A model generated the notes under the pieces. It was given only the letters and a program-made list of their open reading frames with translations, had not been told where the DNA came from and did no database searches. Shown here in pieces: positions 2-25,592 of a stretch of DNA of 64,000 bases. How positions within the stretch are numbered: the first letter of the stretch is position 1; every line of letters begins with the position of its first letter. This stretch comes from Deltaproteobacteria bacterium. GTDB taxonomy: Bacteria; Desulfobacterota; Deferrisomatia; Deferrisomatales; BM512. Location of the stretch: contig PKTT01000002.1 in the NCBI GenBank assembly GCA_002869015.1, positions 32,299 through 96,298 on the forward strand, written 5' to 3'. The translations under genes were made by a program, and so were the position numbers.

Positions 2-100
2 ATTCTGATTAACCGCGCCTCGCTCCACCTGGCCCTCGGCGGCGATTTCGGCCATGAGGTTAAGCGCGCAGGTGATGCACCGGAGAATAACAATGAATAA
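2..100 (+). CDS. 3' end of an upstream gene, possibly an outer-membrane efflux factor (TolC/NodT-like); partial
   Basis: Frame 2 is open from the window edge to TAA at 98-100 (ILINRASLHLALGGDFGHEVKRAGDAPENNNE*). The ...ASL.LALGG... ending resembles C-termini of outer membrane efflux proteins. The stop overlaps the ATG at 93 of the adaptor gene. Only 33 codons are visible. Confidence 0.3.
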   Translation: MLINRASLHLALGGDFGHEVKRAGDAPENNNE

Positions 101-1280
101 ATTTTTTAAAATTGCTCTTCAGATACTCCTACCGGTTATCGCTATTGGCATTGCGGTATATGGCGCGCAAAAGATAATTTCCTCTAAAAAAGCCCCGCCC
201 AAAGTTGAACGTTCCTTCAAGGGCCCATTGGTGAGGTACAAAACCGTTTCGCCAGAGGATCTACAGGTAACCATCGAGGCTTACGGCACCGTCGCGCCCA
301 CCGAAACCCTTGAGGTTACGATGCAAGTGCCGGGAAGGGTGACAGAACTCTCCAAAAATCTTGTGAGCGGCGGGTTCATCGAGGAGGGCGAGCTGCTCCT
401 AAGGGTGGATGCGCGAGATTACGAGCTCGCCGTGGAGAAAGCCCGCGCGGAGGTTGCAAAGACAACATATGAACTCTCCAAAGCTGAGGAAGAACGGGCG
501 TTAGCCATAAAAGAGTGGGAGCTAATGGCCTCCAGATCGAAGCTGAAGATGGAGCGGCCGGCTGATGATTCCCTTGTATTCCACGGCCCTCAGTTAAATC
601 TTGCAAAAGCCAACCTTGCTTCGGCGGAGGCCAAGCTAGCAGAGGCGGAGTTGAATCTCTCACGCACATGGGTGGTGGCGCCATTCAACGCAAGGGTGCT
701 ATCTGAATCGCTCTCCCTAGGGCAGTATGTAACAGTTGGCAAGACACTTGCGACACTCTACTCAACTGCGGCGGCGGAGGTTGTCTTGCCGGTGCTCGAT
801 TCTGAGATGAAGTGGCTTGGACGCTTCGGGTTAACCCACGAAGCCGGTGACGGGCCTCCAGTCCGCCTAACCTCCATATCCAACGACACCCTAAGCTGGG
901 GAGGGCGCATAGTCCGAACCGAAGGAATGATCGATGAAAAGGACAGGACCGTTAACCTCGTCGTTGAGGTGAAGAACCCCTACGAGCGAGGTAAGGCTCC
1001 CCTTGTAGCAGGGACTTTCGTAAAGGGCGAGATAAGTGGCATGAAGCTTAAGGATATTTATGAAGTACCACGAAGCGTTCTACACGAAAACAACTACCTA
1101 TGGGTAATCGAAGACACCAACCTCACCTTCAGAAAGGTTGATATCGTAAGGCTGACACCCGAAAGCGCCTGGATTTCAGGCGGCCTCAAAGATGGGTACA
1201 AAGTTATTACGACGCGCCTTGCCGCCGCAACAGACGGCATGGTGGTTCGCGCGGAAGCTGAAGAGGGGGTCGAAAAATAA
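93..1280 (+). CDS. Efflux RND transporter periplasmic adaptor subunit (membrane fusion protein, HlyD family)
   Basis: ORF 54-1280. The ATG at 93 gives an N-terminal anchor MNKFFKIALQILLPVIAIGIAVYG. Coiled-coil hairpin segments are present (ARDYELAVEKARAEVAKTTYELSKAEEE; NLAKANLASAEAKLAEAELNLSRT). TAATG overlap with the RND permease start at 1280. Confidence 0.85.
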   Translation: MNKFFKIALQILLPVIAIGIAVYGAQKIISSKKAPPKVERSFKGPLVRYKTVSPEDLQVTIEAYGTVAPTETLEVTMQVPGRVTELSKNLVSGGFIEEGELLLRVDARDYELAVEKARAEVAKTTYELSKAEEERALAIKEWELMASRSKLKMERPADDSLVFHGPQLNLAKANLASAEAKLAEAELNLSRTWVVAPFNARVLSESLSLGQYVTVGKTLATLYSTAAAEVVLPVLDSEMKWLGRFGLTHEAGDGPPVRLTSISNDTLSWGGRIVRTEGMIDEKDRTVNLVVEVKNPYERGKAPLVAGTFVKGEISGMKLKDIYEVPRSVLHENNYLWVIEDTNLTFRKVDIVRLTPESAWISGGLKDGYKVITTRLAAATDGMVVRAEAEEGVEK

Positions 1281-4200
1281 TGAAAGGCAACCTGTCAAAC
1301 GGCATCATCGCCTGGTTCGCCAAAAACCACGTAGCCGCCAACCTACTCATGTTGATGTTTTTGGTAATGGGGGCGATAAGCCTCATGAACATCAAACAGG
1401 AGGTATTTCCTGAGGTTGACCTCGACATGGTCACCATCACAGTGCCATACCCGGGGGCAACTCCAGACGAGGTGGAGGAAGCAATATGTACCAGAATTGA
1501 GGAGAGCATCGTCTCCGTTGACGGCATAAAGACCATCACCTCACGTGCCTCTGAGGGTGTGGGCACTGTCATCGTGGAGCTTGAGACCGGGACGGATGTT
1601 CAAAGGGCTGCTGACGATATCCAGGCGGAGGTCGACCTCATCGACACCTTCCCGGAAAACGCTGAAGACCCTCGCGTTTCCCAGCCAAACAACAGACGGC
1701 AGGTAATAAACCTCGTCATATACGGGGATGTGCCTGAGCGAACTTTGAAAGTGCTCGCTGAAAAAGCGCGGGACGAGCTTACGGAGACCCCAGGCATAAC
1801 GCAGGCTGACGTATCTGGCGTTAGGAATTATGAGATCGCCATAGAGGTCAGCGAGGAGACCTTAAGGCGTTTTGGAATAACCTTCGATCAGATAGTCGCG
1901 GCGGTTAAAAGATCATCGCTTGACCTCCCCGGCGGCTCTGTCAAAACCGATGGCGGTGAGATACTGATTAGGACGAAGGGGCAGCGTTATGAGGGCGCCG
2001 AATTCGAGGATATAAACCTTATCACCAGGCTTGACGGCACGACGGTAAAGCTGGGCGATGTTGCGTCCGTAATAGATGGCTTTGACGAGGATACAACCCT
2101 CATAACCCGCTACGACGGGAAACCCGCCACGCTGGTCCAAGTTTTCAGAGTCGGAGAGCAAGACGCCATTGACGTCGCTGATAAAGTAAAAAGCTACATA
2201 ACCTCAGCCGGAGCGTATCTTCCGGCGGGGGTGCAGATGGGGCTTTGGAATGATTCGACCGACATATTAAAGTCCAGGCGGGACCTCCTCCTTAGGAATG
2301 GCGCAAGCGGTCTGATACTGGTATTCGGCTCGCTGTTACTCTTCCTGAGCCTCCGCCTTGCATTCTGGGTGACGATGGGTATCCCGATCTCATTTTTGGG
2401 GGGTCTTTGGCTGATGCCCTACTTCGACACCTCCCTAAATATGGTCTCACTCTTTGCCTTCATTGTAGCCCTTGGCATAGTCGTCGACGACGCGATAGTT
2501 GTTGGAGAAAACATCTATGCCCATTGGGAGGAGGGTAAATCACCCTACAGAGCCGCTGTCGATGGCGCCATAGAGATGGCGGTGCCGGTGGTCTTTGCAG
2601 TGTTGACAACCGTGGTGGCTTTCATGCCACTCCTATATGTAGAGGGAACTATGGGTAAGTTCATGAAAAACATACCCATAGTTGTCATAGCGGTATTTGT
2701 GATCTCTCTAATCGAGTCACTCCTGATTCTGCCCGCCCATCTGGCAGCCGGCAGGATGAAGCACCATAAGCACAATGGTGAAAAGCGCGTCAACCTCCTA
2801 GAGCGCTTCCGCCGCCTCTTCGGCCGCTCCCTTGACTGGTTCATACGAGTCCCCTATGGGAGCACCCTCAGATTGGCGGTTAATTGGAGGTATTTTACCG
2901 TGGCGGTGTTCTTCGGCTTTATGGTCGTAACCCTATCCATCGTCGGGTCAGGTAAAGTGCGCTTCACCTTCTTCCCAAAGGTTGAGTCGGATGTCGTCAC
3001 CGCCACCCTCCAAATGCCCCTTGGCACATCCATCGAAGAGACGGGACGATACTCCAAAATACTGGAAGAGAGCGCCCAAAAGCTGCGTGGGGAGATGGTG
3101 GAGAATGGCAAATCCGTCATATCTCACATCTTCAGCCTCTCCGGCGGGCAGACCGCCAGCAGAGGTCCTTTCGGCGGTTCCTCAAGCGGGGACCACCTCG
3201 CCCAAACTATAATTCAATTGACGCCATCGGAAGAGCGCAACATCACGAGCGAGAACATTTCAAAGAGGTGGCGCGAGCTCGTAGGCGATATACCGGATGC
3301 CGAAAGTCTTACCTTTGCGGGCAGCCTCTTCTCCTCAGGCAACCCAATAGATATCCAGCTTAGAGGCAATGATATGGACACCCTCCTCGAGGGTGCCGAG
3401 AAGCTGAAGGTGGAACTGGCGAAATACCCCGGCGTCTTCGACATAGAGGACTCTTTTAGAGAGGGCAAGATGGAGCTCAAGATGAAGCTAAAAGAGTCCG
3501 CCGCCAACCTTGGCCTCACCCTCGCCGACCTTGCCCACCAGGTCAGGCAGGGATATTACGGTGAGGACGCGCTGACGATACAACGAGGCAAAGATGATAT
3601 CGACGTAGTAGTGCGCTACCCCAAGGAGGAGAGGCGATCGCTTGGCGATGTTGAAAAGATGCGTATCCGCACAGCCTCCGGCGCGGAGGTGCCCTTCTCA
3701 ACCGTGGCCGAGGTGACCCTTGGGCGCGGCTACGCAAATATAAACAGGCAGGAACGGAAGAGGGTTATAAGCGTTACCGCTGATATCGACGAAAAGAACG
3801 CCAACGCAGCTGAGGTGGTGGGCGACCTAAAAGCGGGCTTTCTGCCTCGCCTGGCAGATGATTACCCAGGTCTCTCATACGCCTTTGAGGGGCATGACAA
3901 GAGGCGCGCTGAATCAATGAATAGCTTAAAGAGAGGCTTCATAATAGCACTCTTCGGCATATATCTGCTACTCGCCATACCCTTCAAAACATACACACAG
4001 CCCTTAATAGTTATGACCGCTATCCCCTTTGGCATAGTCGGTGCTGTCTGGGGGCACATTTTCATGGGGATGGATTTAACAATCCTCTCGATGTTTGGAA
4101 TAGTCGCCCTCTCGGGTGTGGTTGTAAATGACTCCCTTATCCTCATAGATTACATAAACAGGGCAAGGGAGAAGGGGACAGCTCTACACACGGCGGTTAT

Positions 4201-4450
4201 GGAGTCGGGAATAAAGCGCTTCAGGCCGATACTATTGACTACCCTTACCACATTCTTCGGGCTATTACCCATGCTGCTTGAGAAATCAGTGCAGGCTAAG
4301 TTCCTAATCCCGATGGCCGTGAGCCTTGGCTTTGGCATAGTGACGGCAACAACCATAACGCTGATTCTTATTCCCTGCCTATACACGATCCTAGAGGACT
4401 TCATGAACCTCTACGGCATCAAAGGCCGCAGGTGGGAAGAGGTTGAGTAG
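1280..4450 (+). CDS. Efflux RND transporter permease subunit (AcrB/AcrD/AcrF family)
   Basis: 1056 aa with a 12-TM pattern and two large periplasmic loops. Typical N-terminus (IAWFAKNHVAANLLMLMFLVMGAISL) and conserved TM4 region (ALGIVVDDAIVVGENI). Translationally coupled to the adaptor. Confidence 0.92.
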   Translation: MKGNLSNGIIAWFAKNHVAANLLMLMFLVMGAISLMNIKQEVFPEVDLDMVTITVPYPGATPDEVEEAICTRIEESIVSVDGIKTITSRASEGVGTVIVELETGTDVQRAADDIQAEVDLIDTFPENAEDPRVSQPNNRRQVINLVIYGDVPERTLKVLAEKARDELTETPGITQADVSGVRNYEIAIEVSEETLRRFGITFDQIVAAVKRSSLDLPGGSVKTDGGEILIRTKGQRYEGAEFEDINLITRLDGTTVKLGDVASVIDGFDEDTTLITRYDGKPATLVQVFRVGEQDAIDVADKVKSYITSAGAYLPAGVQMGLWNDSTDILKSRRDLLLRNGASGLILVFGSLLLFLSLRLAFWVTMGIPISFLGGLWLMPYFDTSLNMVSLFAFIVALGIVVDDAIVVGENIYAHWEEGKSPYRAAVDGAIEMAVPVVFAVLTTVVAFMPLLYVEGTMGKFMKNIPIVVIAVFVISLIESLLILPAHLAAGRMKHHKHNGEKRVNLLERFRRLFGRSLDWFIRVPYGSTLRLAVNWRYFTVAVFFGFMVVTLSIVGSGKVRFTFFPKVESDVVTATLQMPLGTSIEETGRYSKILEESAQKLRGEMVENGKSVISHIFSLSGGQTASRGPFGGSSSGDHLAQTIIQLTPSEERNITSENISKRWRELVGDIPDAESLTFAGSLFSSGNPIDIQLRGNDMDTLLEGAEKLKVELAKYPGVFDIEDSFREGKMELKMKLKESAANLGLTLADLAHQVRQGYYGEDALTIQRGKDDIDVVVRYPKEERRSLGDVEKMRIRTASGAEVPFSTVAEVTLGRGYANINRQERKRVISVTADIDEKNANAAEVVGDLKAGFLPRLADDYPGLSYAFEGHDKRRAESMNSLKRGFIIALFGIYLLLAIPFKTYTQPLIVMTAIPFGIVGAVWGHIFMGMDLTILSMFGIVALSGVVVNDSLILIDYINRAREKGTALHTAVMESGIKRFRPILLTTLTTFFGLLPMLLEKSVQAKFLIPMAVSLGFGIVTATTITLILIPCLYTILEDFMNLYGIKGRRWEEVE

Positions 4451-4623: not shown

Positions 4624-7032
4624 TTGACCCCAATGAACCACGGAAGAGAGATTAAGGCACTCGCGATTTTAAGCTGCGGCGTGCTCCTCTATGAGCTTTT
4701 ACTGATGCGGATATTCTCCGTGCTCATGTGGTACCACTTTGCAAGTCTTGCAATTGGCCTCGCCATGCTCGGGCTAGGCGCGGGTGGCCTTGCAGTTGGG
4801 CTTAAAAGCTCTCTTGGAGAGGAAAAAAAACGCGGGTTGATGGCAGCAATCTTTGCTGCTGGTTCACTACTTGTGCTCATATTTCTTATGGGGGTACACG
4901 CTTATCCGGCACTTGCAAAGGCGACCCTCGCTCCATTTCACCAACCCTTTTACAAACCCTTTGCCAGGCCGGAGACAACCGAACTGGGATGGCCCCTCGC
5001 CTCTCGCCTGCTCCTTCTCGCCATTGGAACTGGGTGGCCATTCTTCTTTGCAGGCGTCGCCACGGCAGGTGCCTTACGTGAAAAGGCCCCGGCGATACAC
5101 GGAGCGTACGGCGCGACATTCCTCGGCTCGGCTTTTGGCTGTATAGCCTTCCCGCTGGTCTTGAATTTCATCTCCGCACCGGCGGCGATAGGCCTTTGCG
5201 CCGCCCTCTCTTCATTGGCGGCGTTCCTCTTTAGCCGCCGCTTAATTTGGCGAAAAATATCAGCAGCCCTTCTCCTCCTCTCTATGATTTTTGGCTGTAT
5301 AGCTCAATTTACGGGACTTGCAGAGATACCCTTCGCCAGAGGGCGCTATGAGCCGGGCATCCTTGCCGTTGAGTGGAATGCAATGAGCCGCGTCGCGGCT
5401 TTTCCGCTCCCACCGGGCGACACACTAAAACCATACGGCCTCTCCAACACCTACAGGGGGGAGTTGCCCAGGCAGATTGGGCTCGTTGTGGATGACTCCG
5501 GCTATACCAACCTTTACGATGGGCTGGCAGCAGCGGAGAATCCGGAATACTTCCGCGCCAACCTTGTCGCCCTCCCCTATCACCTAAGAGAGAACGCAAA
5601 AGCCCTCCTCTTCGGACCCGGCGGCGGCAAAGATATCTGGATAGCACTCTCCTTCCCCAACACCAGGGTGCGCGCTGTGGAGATAAATCCGCAGGTCGTT
5701 GAGATGGTGGAGGATCGATTCGCCCCCTTCACGGGTAAGCCATACAGCGACTCCAGGGTTTCTTTGACAATAAACGACGGACGGCGCTTTGCACTTTTGA
5801 CCGATGAAAAGTATGACGTCATAAGCGCCTCGGCAGTTTTCGGCAGGATGCCTCCGGCGGCGGGGGCCTTCACGCTCTCGGAGGACCTCCTCCACACTCT
5901 TGAAGGCTTTGAGGATTATTGGGAAAAACTCTCGGAGCGTGGCATTATCTCAATTACACGCTTCGCCTATGAGCAACGAGCGCTTAGGTTGACCGCTCTT
6001 TCTCGTGAGCTTTTGGACTCAGTGGGCGTCAAAGACCCCGGCGCGCACATCCGAGTTATAAGCGACCGTGGCCTCTCAAACGTCATGATATCCAAGCGTC
6101 CCTTTTCAGAGGAAGATGACGAGAAGCTGTCCACGTTGGTGGATGATTACAACTTTTCGTTCCTCTACCCGCCTCCCGACGAGGCTGGCGTCAACTCCCT
6201 CACCCGACTGGTGGATGAAGCCGAGATGGATGGGGTGCTCTCTTCTCTTGCCTTTGATGTTTCGCCCCCGACTGACGATAGGCCCTTCTTCTACTACACT
6301 GTAAGGCCGGGCGATTTCCTAAGAGGGCACCTCCCTGGAAAAGCGGGGTTCGATGACAGGGGCGCGGAAATTCTCCGCACGGCATTTCTGCTCCTTGCGC
6401 TGCTCTCAGTTGCAGCGTTGATCCTACCGGCGGCCCTGATAAAGGGGGTACCGCGAGGAGCCGCCAGTTTAGGGCCGCTTGCATACTTTGGGATAATAGC
6501 GCTTGGATATATGGCGCTTGAGATTGGAACGATGAAGCGCCTTCTCCTGCTGCTTGGGCACCCGGTATACGCTGTAAGCGCAACCTTGTTTGCCTTTCTT
6601 CTCGGCTCCGGCCTTGGCGCGCTCCTCTCGGCCAGGCTCGCCCCAACAAGGAGAGCATTGGCGGGATGGTTGGCTATAGCGGTGCTTTTAGGCGCGGCGC
6701 AGGCTTACCTTACCCCCGCTATTACCGAGAGGGCGATGCTCTACAGCGCGCAAATGCGTTTCTTTGTCGCGGCGCTAGTGACCCTACCGCTTGCTTTCAC
6801 ACTGGGTATCCCTTTCCCAACCGGGGTGGCTTTATTAAGAGAGGATGCAGGGAACCTCCTGCCCTGGGCGTGGGCGGTCAACGGCACAGCCTCGGTATTG
6901 GCTTCGCTGGGAGCTGTCCTTCTGGCAATGAACTTTGGGTACGCAGTGACTATAAGCACCGGCGCGCTTCTCTACCTGCTGGCCCTTCTCCTGTCATTCA
7001 CTCTGGAAAAGAGCCGTAGGATAGTTCCATGA
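4624..7032 (+). CDS. Polytopic membrane protein with a central spermidine synthase-like (class I SAM-dependent transferase fold) domain
   Basis: 802 aa. About 7 hydrophobic helices at the N-terminus and about 6 at the C-terminus flank a soluble region with LLFGPGGGKDIWIALSF...VRAVEINPQVVE...INDGRRFALLTDEKYDVISAS, the spermidine-synthase/aminopropyltransferase-type nucleotide-binding pattern. TTG at 4624 or ATG at 4633. ATGA overlap with the next gene. Confidence 0.7.
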   Translation: MTPMNHGREIKALAILSCGVLLYELLLMRIFSVLMWYHFASLAIGLAMLGLGAGGLAVGLKSSLGEEKKRGLMAAIFAAGSLLVLIFLMGVHAYPALAKATLAPFHQPFYKPFARPETTELGWPLASRLLLLAIGTGWPFFFAGVATAGALREKAPAIHGAYGATFLGSAFGCIAFPLVLNFISAPAAIGLCAALSSLAAFLFSRRLIWRKISAALLLLSMIFGCIAQFTGLAEIPFARGRYEPGILAVEWNAMSRVAAFPLPPGDTLKPYGLSNTYRGELPRQIGLVVDDSGYTNLYDGLAAAENPEYFRANLVALPYHLRENAKALLFGPGGGKDIWIALSFPNTRVRAVEINPQVVEMVEDRFAPFTGKPYSDSRVSLTINDGRRFALLTDEKYDVISASAVFGRMPPAAGAFTLSEDLLHTLEGFEDYWEKLSERGIISITRFAYEQRALRLTALSRELLDSVGVKDPGAHIRVISDRGLSNVMISKRPFSEEDDEKLSTLVDDYNFSFLYPPPDEAGVNSLTRLVDEAEMDGVLSSLAFDVSPPTDDRPFFYYTVRPGDFLRGHLPGKAGFDDRGAEILRTAFLLLALLSVAALILPAALIKGVPRGAASLGPLAYFGIIALGYMALEIGTMKRLLLLLGHPVYAVSATLFAFLLGSGLGALLSARLAPTRRALAGWLAIAVLLGAAQAYLTPAITERAMLYSAQMRFFVAALVTLPLAFTLGIPFPTGVALLREDAGNLLPWAWAVNGTASVLASLGAVLLAMNFGYAVTISTGALLYLLALLLSFTLEKSRRIVP

Positions 7033-8114
7033 AAAACTTTTCAGCTACAAATAAACTTTTTATTGCGTTGGTCTTGCTGCTCACATCGGCTGCGTTACCA
7101 AGCTGCACCCGGCAGGACAATCCAGACAAACCATCCACCGTAGAGGGCCGAGTACTTTGGCGGGGGGCAGGCGTACCGATGGCGCTTGTCCAGCTCTACG
7201 AAAAAGCTGAACAGGATCGCTCAACCCCGCCCGTCGCAGAAGGCCCAAGCGGAGAAGATGGTTCTTTTTCCATTACCGCACCTGCCGGGCTTTATTACGT
7301 CTGGGCCAAGGCTACTATGTTGTCGGAGGGGCGCGAGTACAGGCTGGTGGGTGAGGCTGTTCCAAACCCTGTGGCCCCCGCCGCAGGAGGCAGCGCCACT
7401 GTGGAGATTGAGCTAACCGACCCAAGCGGTTTCTCCGCGTCCACGGCCCCAGAGGGTAGCGGGGTTATGGGCAATGTGACGGCAACGGGCAAAGGTAAAG
7501 AGCGACTGACCCTCTACATTTACAGAGGCGCGCACGAAAGGCCTATTGGTCCCGACTTTATAACCGCAACAGACCCTGAAGAGGGAGCCTTTAAGGTTAA
7601 CCTTTTGCCGGGTGAATACACTTTGGCGATTCGCTCAAGAAAATCAGGTAATGATTTCGGTCCGCCCGCCCCCGAAGATAGAGTTTTCTCACGTATCTTC
7701 ACAGTGAAAAGCGGCGAGTATATGGACCTTGGCCCCATAAGTTTAAATGAGATCGATAGTGACCTCTGGCGCTCCGTCACCGCATCTCTTGGAGATGGAA
7801 GCACAAAAGTCAAAGGCGTAATAGTAAACGACCGTGAGCAACCTGAAGCGGGAGTGCGGGTTCTGGCATTTGAAGATGGACGAATGGCGGGCAAGCCCGT
7901 CGCGGTAAGCCCGGCCACCGGTATCGACGGGAGCTTCACTCTGCTCCTGCCGCGCGGAGGCTCATTCTTTCTCGGCGCACGTTCTAGAATAGGCGGCCCG
8001 GCAGCGCCCGGAGAGAGGGTCGGGCAGGAGCGCGGAGAGGATGGCGGCGGCCTCAAAGTCAAGGAGGGCGAGACGGTCAAAGGTGTAAAGATTGTGGTTG
8101 AGGAGGTCTGGTGA
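7029..8114 (+). CDS. Lipoprotein with three carboxypeptidase-regulatory-like (CarboxypepD_reg / transthyretin-like beta-sandwich) domains; paralogue 1
   Basis: Signal peptide plus a Cys (LLLTSAALPSC). Three units of about 100 aa begin EGRVLWRGAGVP..., VMGNVTATGKG... and VKGVIVNDREQP.... The G-x-V-...-G-x-P-V-...-DG-x-F-...-PG-x-Y pattern is typical of CarboxypepD_reg. Coupled to both flanking genes. Confidence 0.65.
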   Translation: MKNFSATNKLFIALVLLLTSAALPSCTRQDNPDKPSTVEGRVLWRGAGVPMALVQLYEKAEQDRSTPPVAEGPSGEDGSFSITAPAGLYYVWAKATMLSEGREYRLVGEAVPNPVAPAAGGSATVEIELTDPSGFSASTAPEGSGVMGNVTATGKGKERLTLYIYRGAHERPIGPDFITATDPEEGAFKVNLLPGEYTLAIRSRKSGNDFGPPAPEDRVFSRIFTVKSGEYMDLGPISLNEIDSDLWRSVTASLGDGSTKVKGVIVNDREQPEAGVRVLAFEDGRMAGKPVAVSPATGIDGSFTLLLPRGGSFFLGARSRIGGPAAPGERVGQERGEDGGGLKVKEGETVKGVKIVVEEVW

Positions 8115-9130
8115 TGTACCCGCGAATTATAATATCCCTTGCGCTCGCCCTTTCCCTCTCCACTTTAGCCTTAGCTGGTGGAGGTATTAAAGGGCGCGCT
8201 TCCCTCGGCGGAGTGCTTGTGGAAGATATATCCGTACGCGCCTACGAATACACGCCGCTAACCTTTGGCCCACTCACTGGGGGTGCGCCTGTTGCAGAGA
8301 CGGTTACGGAAACGGACGGCAGCTATTCCCTTGAGCTGAAACCGGGGCGTTATGTCGTAGAGGCAATTAAAAAGGGTAATGGAAACAACAGTGTCAAAGT
8401 AGAGGGCGGAGACCTCTACTGTCTTTATTCTGGCTCCCCGGTTACCGTCGCTGCGGAGCGCTGGACCGCCGTTGGACTCTACTTGGTAGAAGCCAAAACC
8501 GAGGAGGAGACCCCCTCACCGAGCGCAAAGCTCTCAGGTGAGCTGACATTCAAAGGCGACCCCGTGGAGAGGGCTTACCTATACGCATACAATTCAGCTG
8601 AGGGGGGGTTTCGCGGCCCCGCCTACATGCTTCAGCCCGTGGGCAAGGGCTCCTTCTCTTTGAGATTACCCCCCGGAGAATATTTTCTCGTAGCTAGAAA
8701 GCGTGCACGGGGAGGAGCTTATGGGCCTATGGATACGGGGGATCTATTCAACTTTTATCCTCTAAATCCGGTTGAGATAAAGGCAGGTGCGGAGCTTAAG
8801 GTTAAGATTCTTCTGGTGGAACGTCTAAGCCAGCTAGAAGTGGAGGAAAACTCCTACAGAGGTCTTAAGGTAAAGGTGCTTAGCAGCGGAGGCAAACCCC
8901 TTAGCGACCACTATGTTCTGGCGTACACATCCTCGGCGCGCTCCGGCCCCCCGGCGGCGACGGGAGGCCCTACCGATGAGCGTGGAGAGGCGTTCATAAA
9001 CGTCCCACCCAACGCCATTTATTTGAGGGCGAGAGGAACATTAGGCGGCCCTCTGGCTGAGGAGGAGCCGTTTGCGGATGCCATACGAGGCGAAAGTGAA
9101 GATATGGTGACCTTCAAGGTGTATAAGTGA
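8111..9130 (+). CDS. Secreted protein with three carboxypeptidase-regulatory-like domains; paralogue 2
   Basis: Signal peptide MMYPRIIISLALALSLSTLALAGG. Same three-domain layout and the same Y-F-L-V-A-R-K-R...GP...GDLF motif as its neighbours. GTG at 8111 or, more likely, ATG at 8114 (AGGAGG at 8101-8106). Confidence 0.65.
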   Translation: MMYPRIIISLALALSLSTLALAGGGIKGRASLGGVLVEDISVRAYEYTPLTFGPLTGGAPVAETVTETDGSYSLELKPGRYVVEAIKKGNGNNSVKVEGGDLYCLYSGSPVTVAAERWTAVGLYLVEAKTEEETPSPSAKLSGELTFKGDPVERAYLYAYNSAEGGFRGPAYMLQPVGKGSFSLRLPPGEYFLVARKRARGGAYGPMDTGDLFNFYPLNPVEIKAGAELKVKILLVERLSQLEVEENSYRGLKVKVLSSGGKPLSDHYVLAYTSSARSGPPAATGGPTDERGEAFINVPPNAIYLRARGTLGGPLAEEEPFADAIRGESEDMVTFKVYK

Positions 9131-10164
9131 AACGTTTACTTTTCATAGCCATCTCGATAGCGCTGCTCTTAGGTTGCGCCGCCCGGCAGGGGGCCATCAA
9201 AGGGCGGGTACTCTTCGGTGAAAAGCCGGTTCAAGGTGCCATCGTCACTGCCCAGGCGGAGGGCGCGGAAACCTTTACAGCAACTACTGATGCTAATGGC
9301 GAATATTCCTTCACCGCCCTGCCTCCAGGCGATTTTTCAGTGTCCGCGAAGATAGCTGAAAGAGAGCAAATGGTTACCGTTTGGGGCGAGACACATCTAT
9401 TTCTCCCCCCAGGCGCCGAGGAGTGGGTTGGCCTTAAACTTGCCCCCCGCGAGGGAGTCATATACAGCCCATACGAACCCTCCACGCCCAGCTTTGGCGC
9501 GATATCTGGTGTGGCGCTATTTGATAAGAAGCCGGTAACCGGGGCGGTTGCAAGCATCTATCTGGATGAGGGAGAGGAGCTAAAGGGACGCGGCTTTCGC
9601 CATTCCTTCCCTACCGGTGAAGATGGACGCTTTTACATTGATGATATTCCTGACGGGGTCTACTTCCTGGCGGTTAGAAAACGCGTGGGAAGAGATATCG
9701 GCCCCATAGCCGAGGGCGACCTTTTTGGCGTCGCTTCAGCCAACCCAATCACGGTAAAGCCGGATACAGAGACCTCCACCACCCTCCATTTGGCAAAAAA
9801 AGAGAAGACCCGCGCGCCACACGCGCTTGATCTAAGCCGCACCGGCACCGCCATCCGGGGCCGAGTCTTAGATGCTGATGGCGCGCCGCTGGCGGGGCTC
9901 TATGTCTTCGCTTACAGGTCGAGGATAATCGGACACCAGATGCCCGACTTCATAACCGAGCCAACGGGAGATGACGGAGAATTTATCCTGCCCCTGGGAG
10001 AGGGTGGAATCTTCTATCTCGGAGCGCGTCAGAAGCTTGGATACTCGCCGACCCCAGGCGAGCTCTTCGGCCTCTATGACGGCACCGCCGACCATGGCAT
10101 TAAAGTAGGCAGGGGAGAGGTTATTAAAGGCATAGAGATAAGAGCGGTTGAGGTGCTCCCCTGA
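9127..10164 (+). CDS. Lipoprotein with three carboxypeptidase-regulatory-like domains; paralogue 3
   Basis: Lipobox LLLGC. Units begin IKGRVLFGEKPVQGA, ISGVALFDKKPVTGA and IRGRVLDADGAPLAG. Motifs YFLAVRKRVGRDIGPIAEGDLFG and FYLGARQKLGYSPTPGELFG. GTGA overlap upstream and TGATG overlap downstream. Confidence 0.65.
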   Translation: MKRLLFIAISIALLLGCAARQGAIKGRVLFGEKPVQGAIVTAQAEGAETFTATTDANGEYSFTALPPGDFSVSAKIAEREQMVTVWGETHLFLPPGAEEWVGLKLAPREGVIYSPYEPSTPSFGAISGVALFDKKPVTGAVASIYLDEGEELKGRGFRHSFPTGEDGRFYIDDIPDGVYFLAVRKRVGRDIGPIAEGDLFGVASANPITVKPDTETSTTLHLAKKEKTRAPHALDLSRTGTAIRGRVLDADGAPLAGLYVFAYRSRIIGHQMPDFITEPTGDDGEFILPLGEGGIFYLGARQKLGYSPTPGELFGLYDGTADHGIKVGRGEVIKGIEIRAVEVLP

Positions 10165-11066
10165 TGTTCCGCTTACTATCTGGCCTCCTCTTCCTATCGC
10201 TTGCGGCATGTTCGGCGCCTGAGACAACGGGCGACCTTCACTATATGCCCTCTGAGCTAATCTCAAGCGAGGTTACATGGGAGGGGCGCGTCGTTGTGGA
10301 TAGAATTGTAATCGTTGGGAGGAGCGGGACCCTCAGGATCGCTCCGGGCACAAAAATCCTCTTTGAGAAGGTCGACTGGGACGGAGATGGAATAGGTGAT
10401 GCCGAGATCACCGTTGAAGGTAAACTAATCGCAGATGGCACCCCGCAGGAGCCGATACTAATGGCCTCCGCCGAGGTTGACCCCTCGCCTGGTGATTGGA
10501 AATACCTCCACATCAACTTTGCCAGGGGGGCGCGCCTCTCAAATGTCCGCATAAGCGATGCGTTCAGCGGTATTCAGGTACATTACTCAAAGGTTGAGAT
10601 CGACCGCTGCGACTTTCGCCACAACATAGACGGCATAAGATTTTCAACTGCGGATTTGACGGTTAAGGGTAGCCTGAGCATGCAGAACAGGCATGGCATA
10701 AGGTTCGAGGAGAGGGGGCACCCTGCTCTTATATCGGGAAACCGGGTAACCGATAACGAGGTCGGCATCTTTGCCGTTACAGAGTGTAAGGGCACCTCAA
10801 CTTTTAAAGATAATGACTTTTCAGCCAATGAGACCCCTGTGAAGATGGGCTGGGAGCAGCACAGCGACATCGACCTGACCGGCAACTGGTGGGGCGCGCC
10901 CGCTGACAAGGTCAAAGAGAGTATACTTGATGGTAAAAGGGATAGCACCCTGGGCGTGGCGGTAATAGCGCCGGTTATGGGGCTTGCGCCCGATATATCG
11001 GAGCCATTCTATCTTCCCTACAAAGACCCTGACTGGGAGCGGGCAACAAAAAGAGATCTAAGATGA
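10164..11066 (+). CDS. Lipoprotein with right-handed parallel beta-helix repeats (NosD-like periplasmic protein)
   Basis: Lipobox LSLAAC. Repeated short beta-helix rungs (ISDAFSGIQVHYS / RHNIDGIRFST / MQNRHGIRFEE / TDNEVGIFAVT). C-terminal TGNWWG motif seen in NosD-type beta-helix proteins. ATGA overlap with the next gene. Confidence 0.6.
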   Translation: MFRLLSGLLFLSLAACSAPETTGDLHYMPSELISSEVTWEGRVVVDRIVIVGRSGTLRIAPGTKILFEKVDWDGDGIGDAEITVEGKLIADGTPQEPILMASAEVDPSPGDWKYLHINFARGARLSNVRISDAFSGIQVHYSKVEIDRCDFRHNIDGIRFSTADLTVKGSLSMQNRHGIRFEERGHPALISGNRVTDNEVGIFAVTECKGTSTFKDNDFSANETPVKMGWEQHSDIDLTGNWWGAPADKVKESILDGKRDSTLGVAVIAPVMGLAPDISEPFYLPYKDPDWERATKRDLR

Positions 11067-11971
11067 AGCGACGCGATTTTTTGAAGAAACTTGCCAGGAC
11101 GGGCTTTGTGGTATCAACCGCAGGCGCGTTGCCCCTTTTCGACCTCTCAAAAGCCTCGGCCGCGCCTAAGCCATATCCACTGGCGGTGGCAGCCGATGGC
11201 AGCCCCGCGGAGCTTGCCCGTGAGGCGGTTGGGAAGTTGGGGGGGATTACAAACTTCGTCAAGAGCGGGGATGTGGTTGTGGTAAAGCCCAATATAGGTT
11301 GGGACCGTACTCCCGAGGAGGGCGCTAACACCCACCCCGATGTGGTTCGCGAGCTTGTGTTGATGGCACTGGAGGCTGGCGCAAAGGAGGTTCGCGTCTT
11401 TGACCGCACCTGCAACGATCCGAGGCGCTGCTATAAGCGGAGCGGAATAGAGGACGCCGTTAACTCCATTGAGGATTCGAGGGCAAAGATTACGCACGTA
11501 GATGAGCTACGCTATGAAGTCGTAGAGATTAAGGATGGCGTCTCACTTACCAAGTGGCCCCTCTACCGCCCCGCGCTTGAGGCTGATGTGCTTATAAACG
11601 CCCCCGTCGTCAAACACCACGGCATGAGCGAGGTAACCATCGGCATGAAAAACCTCATGGGAATAATGGGGGGTAACCGTGGGCGACTGCACCGGGATTT
11701 GACCAACGGGCTGGTTGACCTCAGCCTTGCTGTAAAGTCTCATCTGACTGTGGTTGACGCTACGCGGGTTCTCCTCGCGGGCGGCCCCCAGGGAGGTGGA
11801 ACAAATAACGTAAAAGCCATCGGCAAGGTGGCAGCATCCCGAGACGTTGTAACCGCTGATGCTTGGGGGGCTACAATTTTTGGTGTCGATCCATTTTCCA
11901 TACCCCACATAAAGCGAGCACATGAGCGAGGTCTGGGTATCGCAGACCTCTCAAAGGTAGAGTTGCTTTGA
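11063..11971 (+). CDS. Tat-exported DUF362 domain protein
   Basis: N-terminal twin-arginine signal MKRRDFLKKLARTGFVVSTAGALPLFDLSKASA|AP. The core GDVVVVKPNIGWDRTPEEGANTHPDVVRELV...VKHHGMSEVTIGMKNLMG matches my recollection of the DUF362 family. Confidence 0.6.
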   Translation: MKRRDFLKKLARTGFVVSTAGALPLFDLSKASAAPKPYPLAVAADGSPAELAREAVGKLGGITNFVKSGDVVVVKPNIGWDRTPEEGANTHPDVVRELVLMALEAGAKEVRVFDRTCNDPRRCYKRSGIEDAVNSIEDSRAKITHVDELRYEVVEIKDGVSLTKWPLYRPALEADVLINAPVVKHHGMSEVTIGMKNLMGIMGGNRGRLHRDLTNGLVDLSLAVKSHLTVVDATRVLLAGGPQGGGTNNVKAIGKVAASRDVVTADAWGATIFGVDPFSIPHIKRAHERGLGIADLSKVELL

Positions 11972-13509
11972 GGATGCATATAAGTAGCAGAAGAGCGGTC
12001 CAGTTTCTTACGTTGGCGGGGTTTTTAGCCCTCTACGCGAGGACCGCCTATTATGGGCAGGATGAGATCACTTGGCCCGTCCACCTTGCTTTCAAGCTGG
12101 ACCCGCTTGCGCTTTTAAATACCCTGATTGCAGGGGGCTCACCCTCAGCAGCTCTTCTCTTGGGGGGGCTTTCGATGGTCGTCGCTACGGTCATCCTGGG
12201 GCGTTTTTTTTGCGGATGGCTCTGCCCAATGGGTACCACATTAGATATATTCGGAACCCTCCTGAGGAGGGGGGCAAAAAAGCGGCGGGGCTACCAAAAT
12301 GTAAAGCCGCCAAAATATAGTCAGACGGCTCTATTCATCACCCTCCTCTTTGCCACGGCGGCGGGATTGCCCCTTTTGGCATTTCTCGACCCGCTCTCAA
12401 TTTTACTGCGGTCATTGACTGTTTCGGTCTTCCCAGCCTTCGACTATTTGAGCAAAACAATTCTTTCGGCGGGGATGGATGCTTCGGTACCTCTTTCTGA
12501 GCCTATTTTCGAGTTGATGAGCGAGCATATCCTCTTGCTTAAAACCCCAGTCTTTCTTCTGGCCGAGGTGACCGCCGCCATTTTCATAGCAATCATTCTG
12601 CTTGAACTTATCTCACCCAGATTCTGGTGCACATATCTCTGTCCGCTAGGCGGCCTTTTGGGAGTAATTTCCAAGTTCTCACCCTTAACCAGGGCGCGAC
12701 TGGAGGAGTGTAAAGGGTGCAAGGGGTGCGCCGCCCGCTGCCCAAATGGGGCAGCTGATACAAACCCCGCCGACAAGGCGCTCTGCATCCAGTGCATGGA
12801 GTGCGGCGAGCTTTGCAATAAGAATATCTTCGGCATGAGGGCAAGATTCTCGGCACCCTCCCCTTCATTACCAGACCGGAGGATGAGGCGCGGGGTCGTC
12901 GCTTCCATAATAATCGGCGGAGGAGCAGCCCTTTTCACTGGAACCAGCGCAATTGCTAAGAGGCGCGGCACACGCTTTTTGAGGCCTCCGGGAGCTGTAG
13001 ATGAGGAGCGCTTCAATAAGCTCTGCATAAGGTGCGGCGCGTGTATGCGCGTTTGCCCTAGAAACGGTATACACCCGTCTCTCGGCGAAGCCGGGCTGGA
13101 CGGGCTCTGGTCGCCGAGGCTCGTTCCGCGGCTCGGCTATTGTGAATACCATTGCCGGCTCTGCGGACAGGTCTGCCCTACTGGTGCAATCAGGTATCTG
13201 GCTGAGGGGAAGAAGGAATCGTGGGTTATCGGCATCGCGGTGTTGGATAAAAACAGATGCCTCCCGTTGCGTGATGGAACCCCCTGCATTGTATGCGAGG
13301 AGCACTGCCCGACCTCGCCCAAAGCTATAGAGTTTGAGGTAAGGGAGGTCACCCGAAAAGAAGGCGACGTGGTGATGGTAAAACAGCCGAGGATAGTCGC
13401 TGAAAGGTGTAACGGCTGCGGGATATGCGAAAATAAGTGCCCCCTTGAGGGCGAGTCCGCGATCAGGGTCGAGCGTGTACAGCAGGAGATTTCCTCCCCC
13501 TACGGCTAG
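11968..13509 (+). CDS. Membrane polyferredoxin, apparent NapH/NosH-like plus NapG/NosG-like fusion
   Basis: The N-terminal half has 4-5 TM helices and two CX3CP motifs (CGWLCPMG, CTYLCPLG) plus CKGCKGCAARCP and CIQCMECGELC, the NapH/MauN/NosH pattern. It is followed by RRMRRGVVASIIIGGGAALF (Tat-like motif plus helix). The C-terminal half has LRPPGAVDEERFNKLCIRCGACMRVCP and three more Cys clusters, the NapG/MauM pattern. TTG at 11968 or ATG at 11974. Confidence 0.7.
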   Translation: MRMHISSRRAVQFLTLAGFLALYARTAYYGQDEITWPVHLAFKLDPLALLNTLIAGGSPSAALLLGGLSMVVATVILGRFFCGWLCPMGTTLDIFGTLLRRGAKKRRGYQNVKPPKYSQTALFITLLFATAAGLPLLAFLDPLSILLRSLTVSVFPAFDYLSKTILSAGMDASVPLSEPIFELMSEHILLLKTPVFLLAEVTAAIFIAIILLELISPRFWCTYLCPLGGLLGVISKFSPLTRARLEECKGCKGCAARCPNGAADTNPADKALCIQCMECGELCNKNIFGMRARFSAPSPSLPDRRMRRGVVASIIIGGGAALFTGTSAIAKRRGTRFLRPPGAVDEERFNKLCIRCGACMRVCPRNGIHPSLGEAGLDGLWSPRLVPRLGYCEYHCRLCGQVCPTGAIRYLAEGKKESWVIGIAVLDKNRCLPLRDGTPCIVCEEHCPTSPKAIEFEVREVTRKEGDVVMVKQPRIVAERCNGCGICENKCPLEGESAIRVERVQQEISSPYG

Positions 13510-13511: not shown

Positions 13512-15014
13512 CTAAGCCCCTGCCTCAATTATCTCCTTAATTGCTGCCATATCGAGAACCTGGCGCAGGTATGCCGCGAGCTTTTGATAACCCTCCTCCT
13601 TTTTTGCTTTGAAGGAGACAGCGCTGACTGCCTCTCCCCGGTGAAGTGCCAGGAGCGAGGAACGAAAGTCATCGTTGTCGAAGATCCCATGTAAGTATGT
13701 CCCGAGGACTCTGCCATCGGCGGATACGGCGCCATCCTTGTGCCACTCGCCGCTTCCCTTTCTGCGAAGCTCCAAAAGGGGCGCTACCCCTTCGCCAAGG
13801 GTTGTGCGGCCCATGTGAATCTCGTACCCATCGAGTATTCCCCTGTCGCCATACCACCCGAGGGCGCCCTCACGTACTACCGCCTCTGATTGTGAGGTCA
13901 CCTTCTCTCTCTCCATCACGGTGACGGCGTCTATGAGGCCTAGGCCTTCAGCTTCGGGAACGGTACCCTCGACACCGTCGGGGTCCAGAAGTTTGCTACC
14001 CAGCATCTGATAACCGCCGCAAATCCCAACAATAGTCGCCCCAGCGCGGTAGTTTTCGAGAACCTCTGCAGCAAGGCCGGCATCCCGTAGGGTCAGCATA
14101 TCGTCTATGGTGTTTTTTGAACCGGGGATAATTACTATATCGGCTTTGCCAAGGCTCTCCCCCGGCCTGACAAAGTCCAGCCTCACACCCGGCTCCGATA
14201 AAAAGGGGTCAAAATCAGTAAAGTTGGACATCCTCTTTGCAACAACTACCGCGACGCGCACGCTGGAAGCGCCGCCTACGCTCCTCATAGCATCGAGGTG
14301 CAGACCATCCTCCTCCTGGATAAAGATGTCATTTAGCCACCCCACCGTTCCGAGGAAGGGCTTGCCGGTGCGGGACGTTATCTCCCGGTAGGCTGGCTCC
14401 AGAAGAGTCGCGTCGCCACGGAACTTGTTTATGATAAAGCCTTTGATTAGCTCGGCCTCTTCACGCGCTATCAACTCCATGGTGCCTACCAGTGAAGCAA
14501 ATACCCCACCCTTGTTTATATCCCCAACGAGAATAACCGGCACCTCGGCTTCGAGAGCGAATCCCATGTTAGCGACATCGCCCTCCCTTAAATTTATCTC
14601 TGCAGGGCTACCTGCTCCCTCCACCAAGATTACATCAAAGCGCTCATTCAACTTCTTCCAGCTATCGAATACCGTTTCGCGCGCGATCTTCTTGAAGGCG
14701 TGATATTCGGCCGCCTTCATATTTGAATGCACTTTGCCTTGCAATATTACCTGGGCGCCTATGTCGGTTGTGGGTTTTAGGAGCACCGGGTTCATATCCA
14801 CATGAGGTGGTATTCCTGCCGCCTCCGCTTGGACAACCTGCGCCCTACCCATCTCACAGCCCTCGGCAGTTATGAAGGAGTTAAGGGCCATGTTTTGCGG
14901 CTTGAAGGGGGCGACCCTGACACCATCCTGGCTCAATATCCTGCAAAGCCCGGCTACTATGATAGATTTACCCACATCAGAGCCGGTACCCTGTATCATT
15001 ACGCTTTTAGCCAT
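13512..15014 (-). CDS. cobQ: Cobyric acid synthase
   Basis: 500 aa. N-terminal P-loop MIQGTGSDVGKSIIVAGLCR. C-terminal glutamine amidotransferase domain (GICGGYQMLG...YLHGIF). Confidence 0.9.
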   Translation of the reverse strand: MAKSVMIQGTGSDVGKSIIVAGLCRILSQDGVRVAPFKPQNMALNSFITAEGCEMGRAQVVQAEAAGIPPHVDMNPVLLKPTTDIGAQVILQGKVHSNMKAAEYHAFKKIARETVFDSWKKLNERFDVILVEGAGSPAEINLREGDVANMGFALEAEVPVILVGDINKGGVFASLVGTMELIAREEAELIKGFIINKFRGDATLLEPAYREITSRTGKPFLGTVGWLNDIFIQEEDGLHLDAMRSVGGASSVRVAVVVAKRMSNFTDFDPFLSEPGVRLDFVRPGESLGKADIVIIPGSKNTIDDMLTLRDAGLAAEVLENYRAGATIVGICGGYQMLGSKLLDPDGVEGTVPEAEGLGLIDAVTVMEREKVTSQSEAVVREGALGWYGDRGILDGYEIHMGRTTLGEGVAPLLELRRKGSGEWHKDGAVSADGRVLGTYLHGIFDNDDFRSSLLALHRGEAVSAVSFKAKKEEGYQKLAAYLRQVLDMAAIKEIIEAGA

Positions 15015-15054
15015 CTATTAATAACCCTAGGAAATGTTTCAGCATCTAAATGCC

Positions 15055-24122: not shown

Positions 24123-25592
24123 TCAGGGCGCCCCAGGGGCACCTTTCCTCGTAAAACCTCTCTCTTCAAGCCTTCCGATAACGCGCTTCTCCCACTTTGT
24201 CGTTCCCTTTTCAAGAGGCCCCAGCCCCGCTGGAGGTTCTTTTAACCAGGGTGCGTATATGACCTTATCCAGCTTGAACTCACCATCCCAGCCGGGATAG
24301 CTTTTTACTGGCGTATCATAGCCATCCTCAATAAGGGGATTCTGGGCTGAAGCGCCAAGGTCATTAAGAATTGCCGTAGCAGCCTCTCCCCACCAGTTGC
24401 CGCCTGCCGCTACGGATGACTGCTCAGGGGTGTCGTCATCGAACTCCTGCGGAATCTCCCGCCCCTTACTTACAAGGCCCTGGTTTCGCGCCTGTCTTGA
24501 GCGTCGCGGCTTCGAGGAGGCTCTCTTTTCCCAATCTGAGCTCATCATATCGCCCAGCTTAATTACCAGGGAGTTCTCGCTGAGGTCATTACCGCTGATA
24601 CGCGCATAGGATGACGCTTCAAGGAAGATAGCCAATTTATTTTTATTAAACCTGTTATTTACAACTTCCGGTTCACAAAGTTGATTACATTGAAGCGCGG
24701 TTTGGTTATTTTCCAAGCGATTATGGGATATTAAGGGGCTGGAGGACTGATAACATTCTATCCCCACCTTATTTTCTTTTATAATGTTTGACTCAATGAG
24801 GGGCGAGGAGAATTGGGTGCAGAGGATTGCCTTGCCTGCACCTTTTATTACGTTGTGGGCGACGACCATATCGCCAGTCGCCTGGGAAATGCCGATGCCT
24901 ATATCTCCCCCGCTTATTATGTTGTCAAAAACGGGCGCTGTGTCACCCACGAGGAATATCCCCCTTTTTGTACCAGTTATCAGGTTGCCCTGTATAAGGG
25001 GGAAGGCATTCTGGCCCTTGTAAATAGCTGCTTCGCCACAATTTTTGAAAGTATTAGATTGAATAAGAGGTGACGCGCCCAGGGAGACTTCAACCCCCGA
25101 CCGCTCCATATTCTCAACAATATTTCCTGAGAACAGTGAGAGCCCCTTCATCATGAAGCGAACCCCAATTACACCCCCTTCAAATCTTGAATCAACAATC
25201 TCGCCATTAATGCCTGTGATTGTAAAATCTTCATAGCCAGAAGCAGTCACTCCTTTAAAGCTCAAGAACGCCTTTTCTCCAGAGACTTTTATACCCTTCC
25301 AGCGAACGCCCTCCTCAGCTGGGAAAAGCAAGATGGGTGAATCATCCTCGCCCTTAGCCGATAGACCGCCGATTATCTCCAGCCTACCATCTCCGCCAAA
25401 GGAGATCTTGCTTCCCGGCGCGATAGTGAGCGTTGCACCCTCCTCTACAGTTAACGGGCCATCAACGGCAACCTCTCCACTCCACACAGTATCCTCGGAT
25501 ATTTTTCCCGGGGCTATCGAAGTAGCCGCATAGGAGGAGAGCGGGAGGGCCTGCGCGATGAGGATAAATAAGAGTAGCGCGGTTCTTTTCAA
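24123..25592 (-). CDS. Secreted right-handed parallel beta-helix repeat protein (NosD-like), paralogue of 10164-11066
   Basis: Signal peptide MKRTALLLFILIAQALPLSSYA. N-terminal DTVWSGEVAVDG...ATLTIAPGSKISF parallels EVTWEGRVVVDR...GTLRIAPGTKILF of the 10164 gene. Many beta-helix rungs (NIVENMERSGVEV / NLITGTKRGIFLV / NIIKENKVGIECY). GGNWWG motif. Confidence 0.65.
   Translation of the reverse strand: MKRTALLLFILIAQALPLSSYAATSIAPGKISEDTVWSGEVAVDGPLTVEEGATLTIAPGSKISFGGDGRLEIIGGLSAKGEDDSPILLFPAEEGVRWKGIKVSGEKAFLSFKGVTASGYEDFTITGINGEIVDSRFEGGVIGVRFMMKGLSLFSGNIVENMERSGVEVSLGASPLIQSNTFKNCGEAAIYKGQNAFPLIQGNLITGTKRGIFLVGDTAPVFDNIISGGDIGIGISQATGDMVVAHNVIKGAGKAILCTQFSSPLIESNIIKENKVGIECYQSSSPLISHNRLENNQTALQCNQLCEPEVVNNRFNKNKLAIFLEASSYARISGNDLSENSLVIKLGDMMSSDWEKRASSKPRRSRQARNQGLVSKGREIPQEFDDDTPEQSSVAAGGNWWGEAATAILNDLGASAQNPLIEDGYDTPVKSYPGWDGEFKLDKVIYAPWLKEPPAGLGPLEKGTTKWEKRVIGRLEERGFTRKGAPGAP

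Follow-up and report, generated by a model that had tools for sequence, protein, structure and literature searches.

The window analyzed here is a 64,000-nucleotide stretch of a Deltaproteobacteria bacterium placed in the Deferrisomatales (contig PKTT01000002.1, positions 32,299 to 96,298). It contains three adjacent paralogous genes, designated A, B, and C, whose exported products share a recurring loop motif within repeated beta-sandwich domains. Paralog A (7029..8114, +) encodes a predicted lipoprotein of 361 amino acids (aa) with three transthyretin-like domains (nt 7134-7424, 7455-7763, and 7791-8111). Paralog B (8111..9130, +) encodes 339 aa with a signal of the signal-peptidase-I type and three such domains (nt 8180-8494, 8522-8806, and 8831-9127). 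Paralog C (9127..10164, +) encodes a predicted lipoprotein of 345 aa, again with three domains (nt 9190-9456, 9496-9777, and 9832-10161). An earlier note on this DNA had described three exported proteins of these lengths with one common layout, and the coordinates, lengths, and signals bear this out. C is identical to NCBI entry C0608_00240 of a Deltaproteobacteria metagenome-assembled genome (MAG), where it is labeled 'hypothetical protein'.

As read at the N-termini, the signal of A ends in ...LPSC, with a conserved Cys and canonical lipoboxes in A-type orthologs. The signal of B shows an ALA/GGG cleavage site, with A-x-A type signals in its orthologs, and the lipobox of C is LLGC. The mature proteins have a pI of 5.0-5.4 and contain 0-1 Cys, and no enzyme family match was found for them in Pfam or NCBIfam. 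At the opposite end, A-type proteins terminate in E-x-W in 43 of 44 sequences (EVW, EFW, EKW, or EIW; window 8103-8111). A similar end (KVW, EMW) occurs in a two-domain relative and a fourth paralog, both described below, and is not found in B or C.

The three proteins are only distantly related, with mutual identities of 25-31% and pairwise BLASTP E-values of 1e-15 to 1e-21. To resolve their internal structure, 43-66 orthologs per paralog were taken from related loci in other genomes, each family was split into three domain alignments, and the nine resulting profiles were compared all against all by HHalign (36 pairs). Every pair reached a probability of 97-100%, so the nine domains are mutually homologous. 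The domain 1 families cluster together (E 1e-20 to 1e-24), as do those of domain 2 (E 1e-28 to 1e-34) and domain 3 (E 1e-34 to 1e-50), and domain 3 is more distant from domains 1 and 2 than these are from one another. Because the families group by position across A, B, and C, the internal domain triplication is older than the gene triplication. An AlphaFold2 model was built from a 19-sequence alignment for C, the only one of the three proteins modeled. It shows three all-beta domains at residues ~22-115, 123-221, and 242-339 (pLDDT 87.6, pTM 0.64). The earlier proposal of three beta-sandwich domains per protein thus agrees with both the profile comparisons and the predicted structure.

The motif occurs in domains 2 and 3 of each protein. 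In A, it spans 7617..7688 (+) in domain 2, translated as YTLAIRSRKSGNDFGPPAPEDRVF and aligned with the other motif segments, and 7965..8024 (+) in domain 3 (FFLGARSRIGGPAAPGERVG), where 44 A-type sequences conserve GARS..GGP..PGE to at least 90%. In B, the domain 2 segment lies at 8681..8755 (+; YFLVARKRARGGAYGPMDTGDLFNF), with ARKR..GG.FGP...GD 70-90% conserved among 56 B-type sequences, and the domain 3 segment at 9017..9073 (+; IYLRARGTLGGPLAEEEPF in translation). The domain 2 segment of C (9661..9732, +; YFLAVRKRVGRDIGPIAEGDLFGV) is an insertion between the strands at residues 177-185 and 199-202, as assigned by DSSP on the model. In its domain 3 segment (10012..10077, +; FYLGARQKLGYSPTPGELFGLY), residues A300, R301, G305, P308, and E312 are invariant among C orthologs. 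All six strings quoted in the earlier note are present, and HHalign and MAFFT alignments place them at equivalent positions. Taken literally, the pattern written there fits only B domain 2. Once loosened, it matches each of the six segments and has no match among the remaining 48 proteins of the window (~18,300 aa).

Structurally, the motif is an insertion of 10-12 residues within the hairpin that joins strands 5 and 6. In domain 2 of the C model, strand 5 ends with VYFLAVRKR (177-185), followed by a 12-residue loop and then strand 6 (LFGV, 199-202). Across the family, the domain 2 consensus reads G-x-Y-[YF]-[LIV]-x-A-R-K-R-x5-G-P-L-x-x-G-D-[LYF]-[FY]-G-[YF]-[YF]-P-G-N-P-V, and that of domain 3 reads G-x-Y-Y-L-G-A-R-x3-G-G-P-P-x-P-G-E-x-[FY]-G-x-Y. 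The motif therefore extends further downstream than first described, as G-[YF]-[YF]-x-G-N-P-V. The earlier assignment to domains 2 and 3 stands for the six segments, but a degenerate and shorter version, A-[RK]-K...G-D-L-F-x-Y-Y-G-x-N-P-V, is found in domain 1 as well and is weakest in the C protein of this window. In B domain 1, this form lies at 8348..8458 (+; YVVEAIKKGNGNNSVKVEGGDLYCLYSGSPVTV), and HHalign of B domain 2 against B domain 1 pairs it with the domain 2 motif. A variant form is seen in domain 2 of A in compact-type loci (window 7617-7700; L001, L005-L009, and L058), where A, B, and C are directly adjacent. There, a 3-residue deletion has removed the G-x-Y-x-G-N-P-V tail, while the R-x-R...G...D core is retained.

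Conservation was measured family-wide over 97 representatives that are at most 50% identical. The motif regions hold about half of the 45 best-conserved columns, and the best-conserved charged residues all belong to the motif: R301 at 98% (95/97), D198 at 95%, R186 at 87%, and R184 at 85%, in C numbering. R184, R186, G192, P193, and D198 are invariant in 16-19 C orthologs and present in 81-95 of the 97 representatives. Between these anchors, loop positions are fixed within each orthologous group and differ between A, B, and C and between domains, as in GGQFGPIEIGDYFNYY of B domain 2, G.RVGPV.EGDL of C domain 2, and GGPLEPGEWVG of A domain 3. Such residues, fixed within groups and varying between them, are what one would expect of a common scaffold that carries specificity loops.

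The same anchors may also be read as a structural staple, in which an Arg-Asp/Glu pair closes the enlarged hairpin and Gly-Pro fixes the turn, so that the motif stabilizes the domain or its junctions and has no external binding role. The C model places the conserved basic residue at the end of strand 5 and the conserved acidic one at the start of strand 6, so that the two are likely cross-strand neighbors. Invariant residues are mostly Gly and Pro, and the fold topology suggests that the strand 5-6 loop lies at the C-terminal end of its domain, beside the next one. However, a mere spacer would not need the loop positions between the staple residues to be conserved within orthogroups, and domain 3, which no further domain follows, has the best-conserved motif of all. 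A salt-bridge test of basic/acidic co-occurrence, in which phylogeny is a confounder, gave no clear statistical signal. We regard the staple as unlikely, although far from negligible.

Comparison with known families indicates where the domains depart from their relatives. The closest is CarboxypepD_reg (PF13620), which has the same fold and to which the N-terminal two-thirds of each A, B, or C domain aligns. C scores 71.5 bits over 3 stretches and B scores 37.2 bits against a cut-off of 32.3, whereas A has no match to this model at all. Two enlarged loops set the A/B/C domains apart: strand 2 is followed by one that reads x-x-[KR]-G-P-x-[FY], and strands 5 and 6 are separated by the insertion of 10-12 residues ([RK]-x-[RK]...G-P...). 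Motif-bearing domains cover only positions ~2-55 or 27-64 of the 82 in the hidden Markov model (HMM), the insertion interrupting the rest. In P0067, one of the natural fusion proteins described below, domain 1 has no insertion and aligns to the whole model (HMM 1-79), so the G-[DE]-x-[FY] that trails the loop probably represents the canonical turn of this fold, written 'pGY/pGF' in the Pfam consensus. The earlier claim that the motif is foreign to ordinary CarboxypepD_reg domains accordingly holds for the [RK]-x-[RK]-x(2-6)-G-P-x(3) insertion, which is the new element, and probably fails for the turn behind it.

A profile of the six motif domains was searched against 1.84 billion representative proteins. 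It returned 24,410 matches at E <= 1e-3 and only 110 at E <= 1e-30. Whole-domain matches are mostly ~350-aa proteins of three domains, with some two-domain and fused forms. Generic CarboxypepD_reg repeat proteins match only profile positions ~4-62 of 101, and their repeats have no motif (e.g., P0095). No NCBIfam model was found for A, B, or C. When PDB sequences were searched with the profile of the C family, matches were limited to the generic domain 1; hence, no solved structure contains the motif-bearing domains. By these searches, the motif is not a feature of a named family, in line with the earlier suggestion. All three proteins share a diagnostic architecture, namely three ~100-aa domains with [YF]-[YF]-[LIV]-x-A-R...G-P...G-[DE]-x-[FY]-G, encoded after a protein with 14 transmembrane (TM) helices and a SpeE-type fold.

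Two-domain relatives also occur. A ~245-aa lipoprotein with one domain 2-like and one domain 3-like unit, both motif-bearing, is encoded at 15095-15823 (-) of L001 and 14878-15615 (-) of L007. Further examples lie at 803-1543 (-) of L020 and 2230-3042 (+) of L055, with both motif loops present. The two-domain relative adjoins EB_dh (heme-binding) and HEAT-repeat genes near the main cluster, and no copy was found in the window.

Several other tandem beta-sandwich proteins resemble A, B, and C in part. The C model and its Foldseek matches to prealbumin/CnaB-like sandwiches place the domains in the class of seven-stranded, transthyretin-like beta-sandwiches; against PDB, the model retrieved only tandem prealbumin/CnaB-type sandwiches, including a TIE protein, pilins, and DUF3823 lipoproteins. 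Gram-positive pilins, TIE proteins, and SdrD B repeats gave the best whole-model matches (E 1e-10 to 1e-5), but TM-scores of 0.2-0.35 and identities of ~10-14% keep CnaB-type pilins apart. A, B, and C also have no LPXTG and instead carry lipoprotein or Sec signals, as in diderm bacteria. The conserved basic residue, read from sequence and without a systematic isopeptide-triad search, is Arg and not an isopeptide-capable Lys. NOMO, a subunit of the BOS complex with ~12 domains, likewise consists of tandem transthyretin-like domains that are exported or luminal. C-family domain 1 matches NOMO2 (9c7v_B) at E 1e-11, weak Pfam NOMO matches exist, and NOMO is a plausible analog for a spacer or strut role. 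Unlike A, B, and C, it is eukaryotic, has no motif insertion and no beta-helix or ferredoxin partners, and only the generic domain 1 part matches. For DUF4198 (PF10670), C reaches 50.5 bits against a cut-off of 34 but aligns only at positions 148-207 of 209, the generic beta-sandwich part, and A (20 bits) and B (24.6 bits) fall below the cut-off. A weak NCBIfam match (E 1.7e-4) is to NikL-type nickel/cobalt uptake accessories (NF058648), but ECF or Nik transporter genes are not in the cluster.

The three genes belong to a larger operon. Stop and start codons overlap at every junction from 7029 to 11968 (ATGA, GTGA, GTGA, TGATG, ATGA, and TTGA, in order), and because all junctions overlap, the genes from the upstream membrane protein through a polyferredoxin form one translationally coupled unit. 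Species-representative genomes were scanned for related loci with a 16-sequence alignment. This yielded 65 loci, of which one each comes from a Gemmatimonadota and a Kiloniellaceae MAG and most belong to Desulfuromonadales and Deferrisomatales; Geothermobacter hydrogeniphilus HR-1 and strain IMCC39146 are among the sources. Forty loci extend far enough for the gene order to be read, and in every one of them a membrane protein of ~800 aa is followed by three A/B/C-type genes; in 37 of the 40, the best matches are A-, B-, and C-type in this order. The earlier question of whether orthologous loci always carry three copies is thus answered in the affirmative for this set.

These loci also bear on the simplest account of the motif, that its recurrence reflects recent tandem duplication or chance and is functionally meaningless. 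The genes are indeed adjacent and homologous. However, the copies share only 25-31% identity, their number and order persist across Desulfuromonadales, Deferrisomatales, and other lineages, motif columns are conserved far above the remainder of the proteins, and the loosened pattern occurs nowhere else among the window proteins. On these four grounds, this account can be considered excluded for practical purposes. Judged from the loci, the gene triplication is ancient, and the HHalign and conservation data agree with the earlier view that the motif was kept through it, and extend this to the older internal domain triplication.

The operon comprises 7 to 13 genes and is found in dozens of species-level genomes, mostly of Desulfuromonadales, Deferrisomatales, and related lineages. 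Cultured hosts include Geopsychrobacter electrodiphilus, Geothermobacter hydrogeniphilus, and Geoalkalibacter halelectricus. The canonical Desulfuromonadales order begins with an optional FG-GAP/UnbV_ASPIC gene, an optional fourth paralog, a gene combining NosD and a PQQ-propeller, and then the membrane protein. It continues with A and a beta-helix gene; B and a beta-helix gene; C, a DUF3467 gene, and a beta-helix gene; and finally OpuAC-like, DUF362, and polyferredoxin genes. A compact form, A-B-C-beta-helix, occurs in the clade of the window and in Deferrisomatales. The G. electrodiphilus locus (L069) contains two extra small genes not in this window, at 18072-18371 and 19226-19822. In the Desulfuromonadales form, a gene for a 99-aa DUF3467 protein separates C from the last beta-helix gene, and one for a 198-aa OpuAC-like protein precedes DUF362.

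The first operon gene of the window (4624..7032, +) encodes an 802-aa membrane protein with 14 helices, arranged as 7 TM helices, a spermidine-synthase-fold domain, and 7 further TM helices. Its Pfam Spermine_synth score is borderline (23.9 bits). Foldseek with its AlphaFold2 model (pLDDT 88.8, pTM 0.92) retrieves spermidine synthases at target TM-scores of 0.47-0.60. Counts of Lys and Arg in the loops over 40 homologs fit a periplasmic soluble domain, and the spermidine-synthase-fold domain, at residues ~235-570, is predicted to be periplasmic. The protein falls far short of the equivalog level for aminopropyltransferases, with NCBIfam scores of 21-29 bits against cut-offs of 249-472. The alignment to the SpeE HMM stops after YDVI, where an invariant A-S-A-V-F-G-R follows in place of D-x-x-D-P, the SpeE segment with the catalytic aspartates. 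Homologs also share an invariant DDRPFFY at residues 551-557. More than 700 homologs exist, labeled hypothetical or 'spermidine synthase'. HHalign of the N- and C-terminal membrane halves found no internal repeat (probability 1%).

Directly after C, with the TGATG overlap, lies a gene (10164..11066, +) for a NosD-like right-handed beta-helix lipoprotein of 300 aa (lipobox LAAC; Pfam Beta_helix 40.1 and NosD 38.3 bits). This beta-helix type is found downstream of C in related loci, and it is likely a partner of the three-domain proteins. Among Desulfuromonadales, every three-domain gene has a beta-helix gene of its own behind it, with overlapping stop and start codons, and a locus may hold up to four beta-helix paralogs, each paired with a three-domain protein. 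Seven representative proteins fuse a three-domain unit to a NosD/Beta_helix domain, in both orders. Another fusion, P0163 (627 aa), joins a three-domain motif protein to a C-terminal class I SAM-dependent methyltransferase (Methyltransf_31, 63.6 bits). It was seen once among nine long or atypical matches scanned with Pfam and may be real or an assembly artifact. A second NosD-like beta-helix gene of the window is unlinked to the operon (24123..25592, -; 489 aa; Pfam Beta_helix 85.9 and NosD 77.4 bits). Its best match is the Geopsychrobacter 'NosD3' gene (tblastn E 4e-36), which represents the type situated between B and C in Desulfuromonadales loci, so one partner-type gene seems to have been retained here in an unlinked position. 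It is flanked by ispH (25602-26435) and ribF (23018-24004).

Two further genes complete the operon. A DUF362 protein (11063..11971, +; 302 aa; Pfam DUF362 165 bits) has a twin-arginine (TAT) signal that reads RRDFLK. The last gene (11968..13509, +) encodes a 513-aa membrane polyferredoxin, a NapH-like/NapG-like fusion with Fer4_5 and Fer4_7, which scores 107.9 bits for NapH and 95.8 bits for NapG, both below the equivalog cut-offs. Both genes are linked to the cluster in most loci that extend far enough. The 300-aa neighbor and the interleaved genes match Pfam NosD and Beta_helix and in this resemble NosD, a beta-helix protein of nitrous oxide reductase maturation, and the linkage of a NapH/NapG-like polyferredoxin recalls nosGH of clade II nos clusters. 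Yet the 300-aa protein scores 26.5 bits against the NosD cut-off of 300 (TIGR04247), and its 38.3 bits against the Pfam NosD cut-off of 23.6 represent domain-level similarity only. Moreover, nosZ, nosF, and nosY are absent from the conserved cluster, with none found in the window operon or the L069 locus, and the multiple beta-helix paralogs per locus set it further apart from NosD.

Current evidence favors a reading in which A, B, and C have no catalytic activity and serve a periplasmic complex as adaptors or struts, with motif loops that act as paralog-specific recognition surfaces, a reading to which we assign a probability of roughly 0.4. It draws on three ancient, non-redundant paralogs, on mature proteins that are acidic, contain 0-1 Cys, and show no signature of an enzyme, and on tight operon coupling, one-to-one interleaving with beta-helix genes, and natural fusions. 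In this arrangement, A and C would be lipoproteins and B soluble, each forming a short rod of three transthyretin-like beta-sandwich domains. A conserved Arg, usually within R-x-R, ends strand 5 and a conserved Gly-Asp/Glu starts strand 6, with the Gly-Pro-containing loop between them. These loops would allow A, B, and C to form a single periplasmic complex with the NosD-like beta-helix proteins and the periplasmic domain of the 14-helix protein, one that is genetically tied to the quinol-linked polyferredoxin and the DUF362 protein with its TAT signal. We infer each of these elements: the physical complex, the loop as a binding surface, and the redox link. The ligand- or partner-binding loop suggested in the earlier note is plausible on the same indirect grounds. 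A metal or cofactor role for A, B, and C was also considered and is judged unlikely because the proteins have 0-1 Cys and few His.

Several points weigh against an adaptor function. In some lineages, this window included, the operon has kept only one of the three adjacent beta-helix genes, yet the motif is conserved there, and the loops therefore cannot serve only adjacent beta-helix partners. The co-occurrence test described above offers no clear signal, and a search of the literature for the cluster found no description of it. In addition, loops rich in aromatic residues, Arg, Asp, and Asn on a carbohydrate-binding-like fold suit glycan binding equally well.

This last point underlies a further alternative, in which the loops bind a glycan or other polymer and A, B, and C are subunits akin to carbohydrate-binding modules that present a polysaccharide of the periplasm or cell surface to NosD-like (CASH-type) beta-helix enzymes. 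The extended motif is rich in residues typical of sugar sites (R-x-R, G-D, F-G-Y-Y, and N-P). The fold class is carbohydrate-binding-like, and the Foldseek matches include the Bacteroides surface lipoproteins 4iyk, 4fxt, and 3hn5, one of which was deposited as a putative carbohydrate-binding protein. The partner proteins match Pfam NosD and Beta_helix, which belong to a beta-helix class that includes sugar hydrolases and epimerases. However, the conserved cluster contains no glycosyltransferase, polymerase, or sugar-export genes, its polyferredoxin and DUF362 members do not suggest glycan metabolism, the loops diverge between paralogs more than a shared ligand would predict, and the mature proteins are acidic. 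Glycan binding is therefore possible, but we consider it doubtful.

The adaptor reading can be extended to a modular periplasmic machine not recognized before, composed of the 14-helix protein, 3-4 pairs of a three-domain and a beta-helix protein, the DUF362 protein, and the quinol-linked polyferredoxin. Electrons from the quinol pool would pass to a substrate held by the module, such as a polymer of the envelope, a sulfur species, or a species derived from a mineral, and the loops would serve as a pairing code between adaptors and modules. In this full form the proposal is speculative and carries only a small chance of being correct.

Genes around the operon were also surveyed. Directly upstream lies an RND efflux pair (54-4450, +), consisting of a 408-aa membrane fusion protein and a 1056-aa RND pump. 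These genes were rejected as cluster members because they are not conserved beside the cluster in other loci. Genes resembling a type IV pilus or type II secretion system set occupy 16415-22114 (-) and encode two T2SSE-family ATPases, one T2SSF-family protein, and a histidine kinase similar to PilS. Ahead of this set lies a 500-aa open reading frame (13512-15014, -) that appears cobQ-like by the look of its sequence alone. An Rfam scan of the whole window gave zero matches, and a scan for promoters and terminators gave results at chance level.

Taken together, A, B, and C define a well-conserved and unnamed subfamily of a very common beta-sandwich domain. Its diagnostic loop insertion escapes current domain models, and A is wholly unrecognized by them. 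The fixed A-B-C paralogy, the one-to-one pairing with beta-helix proteins, and the fusions lead to testable predictions about a multi-subunit envelope complex linked to a membrane polyferredoxin. The operon is found mainly in metal- and sulfur-respiring lineages (Desulfuromonadales and Deferrisomatales), and the electron-transfer link, if true, would reveal a new respiratory or maturation module of the envelope. Even without that link, the analysis provides a cleaner family definition and a set of candidate specificity loops.

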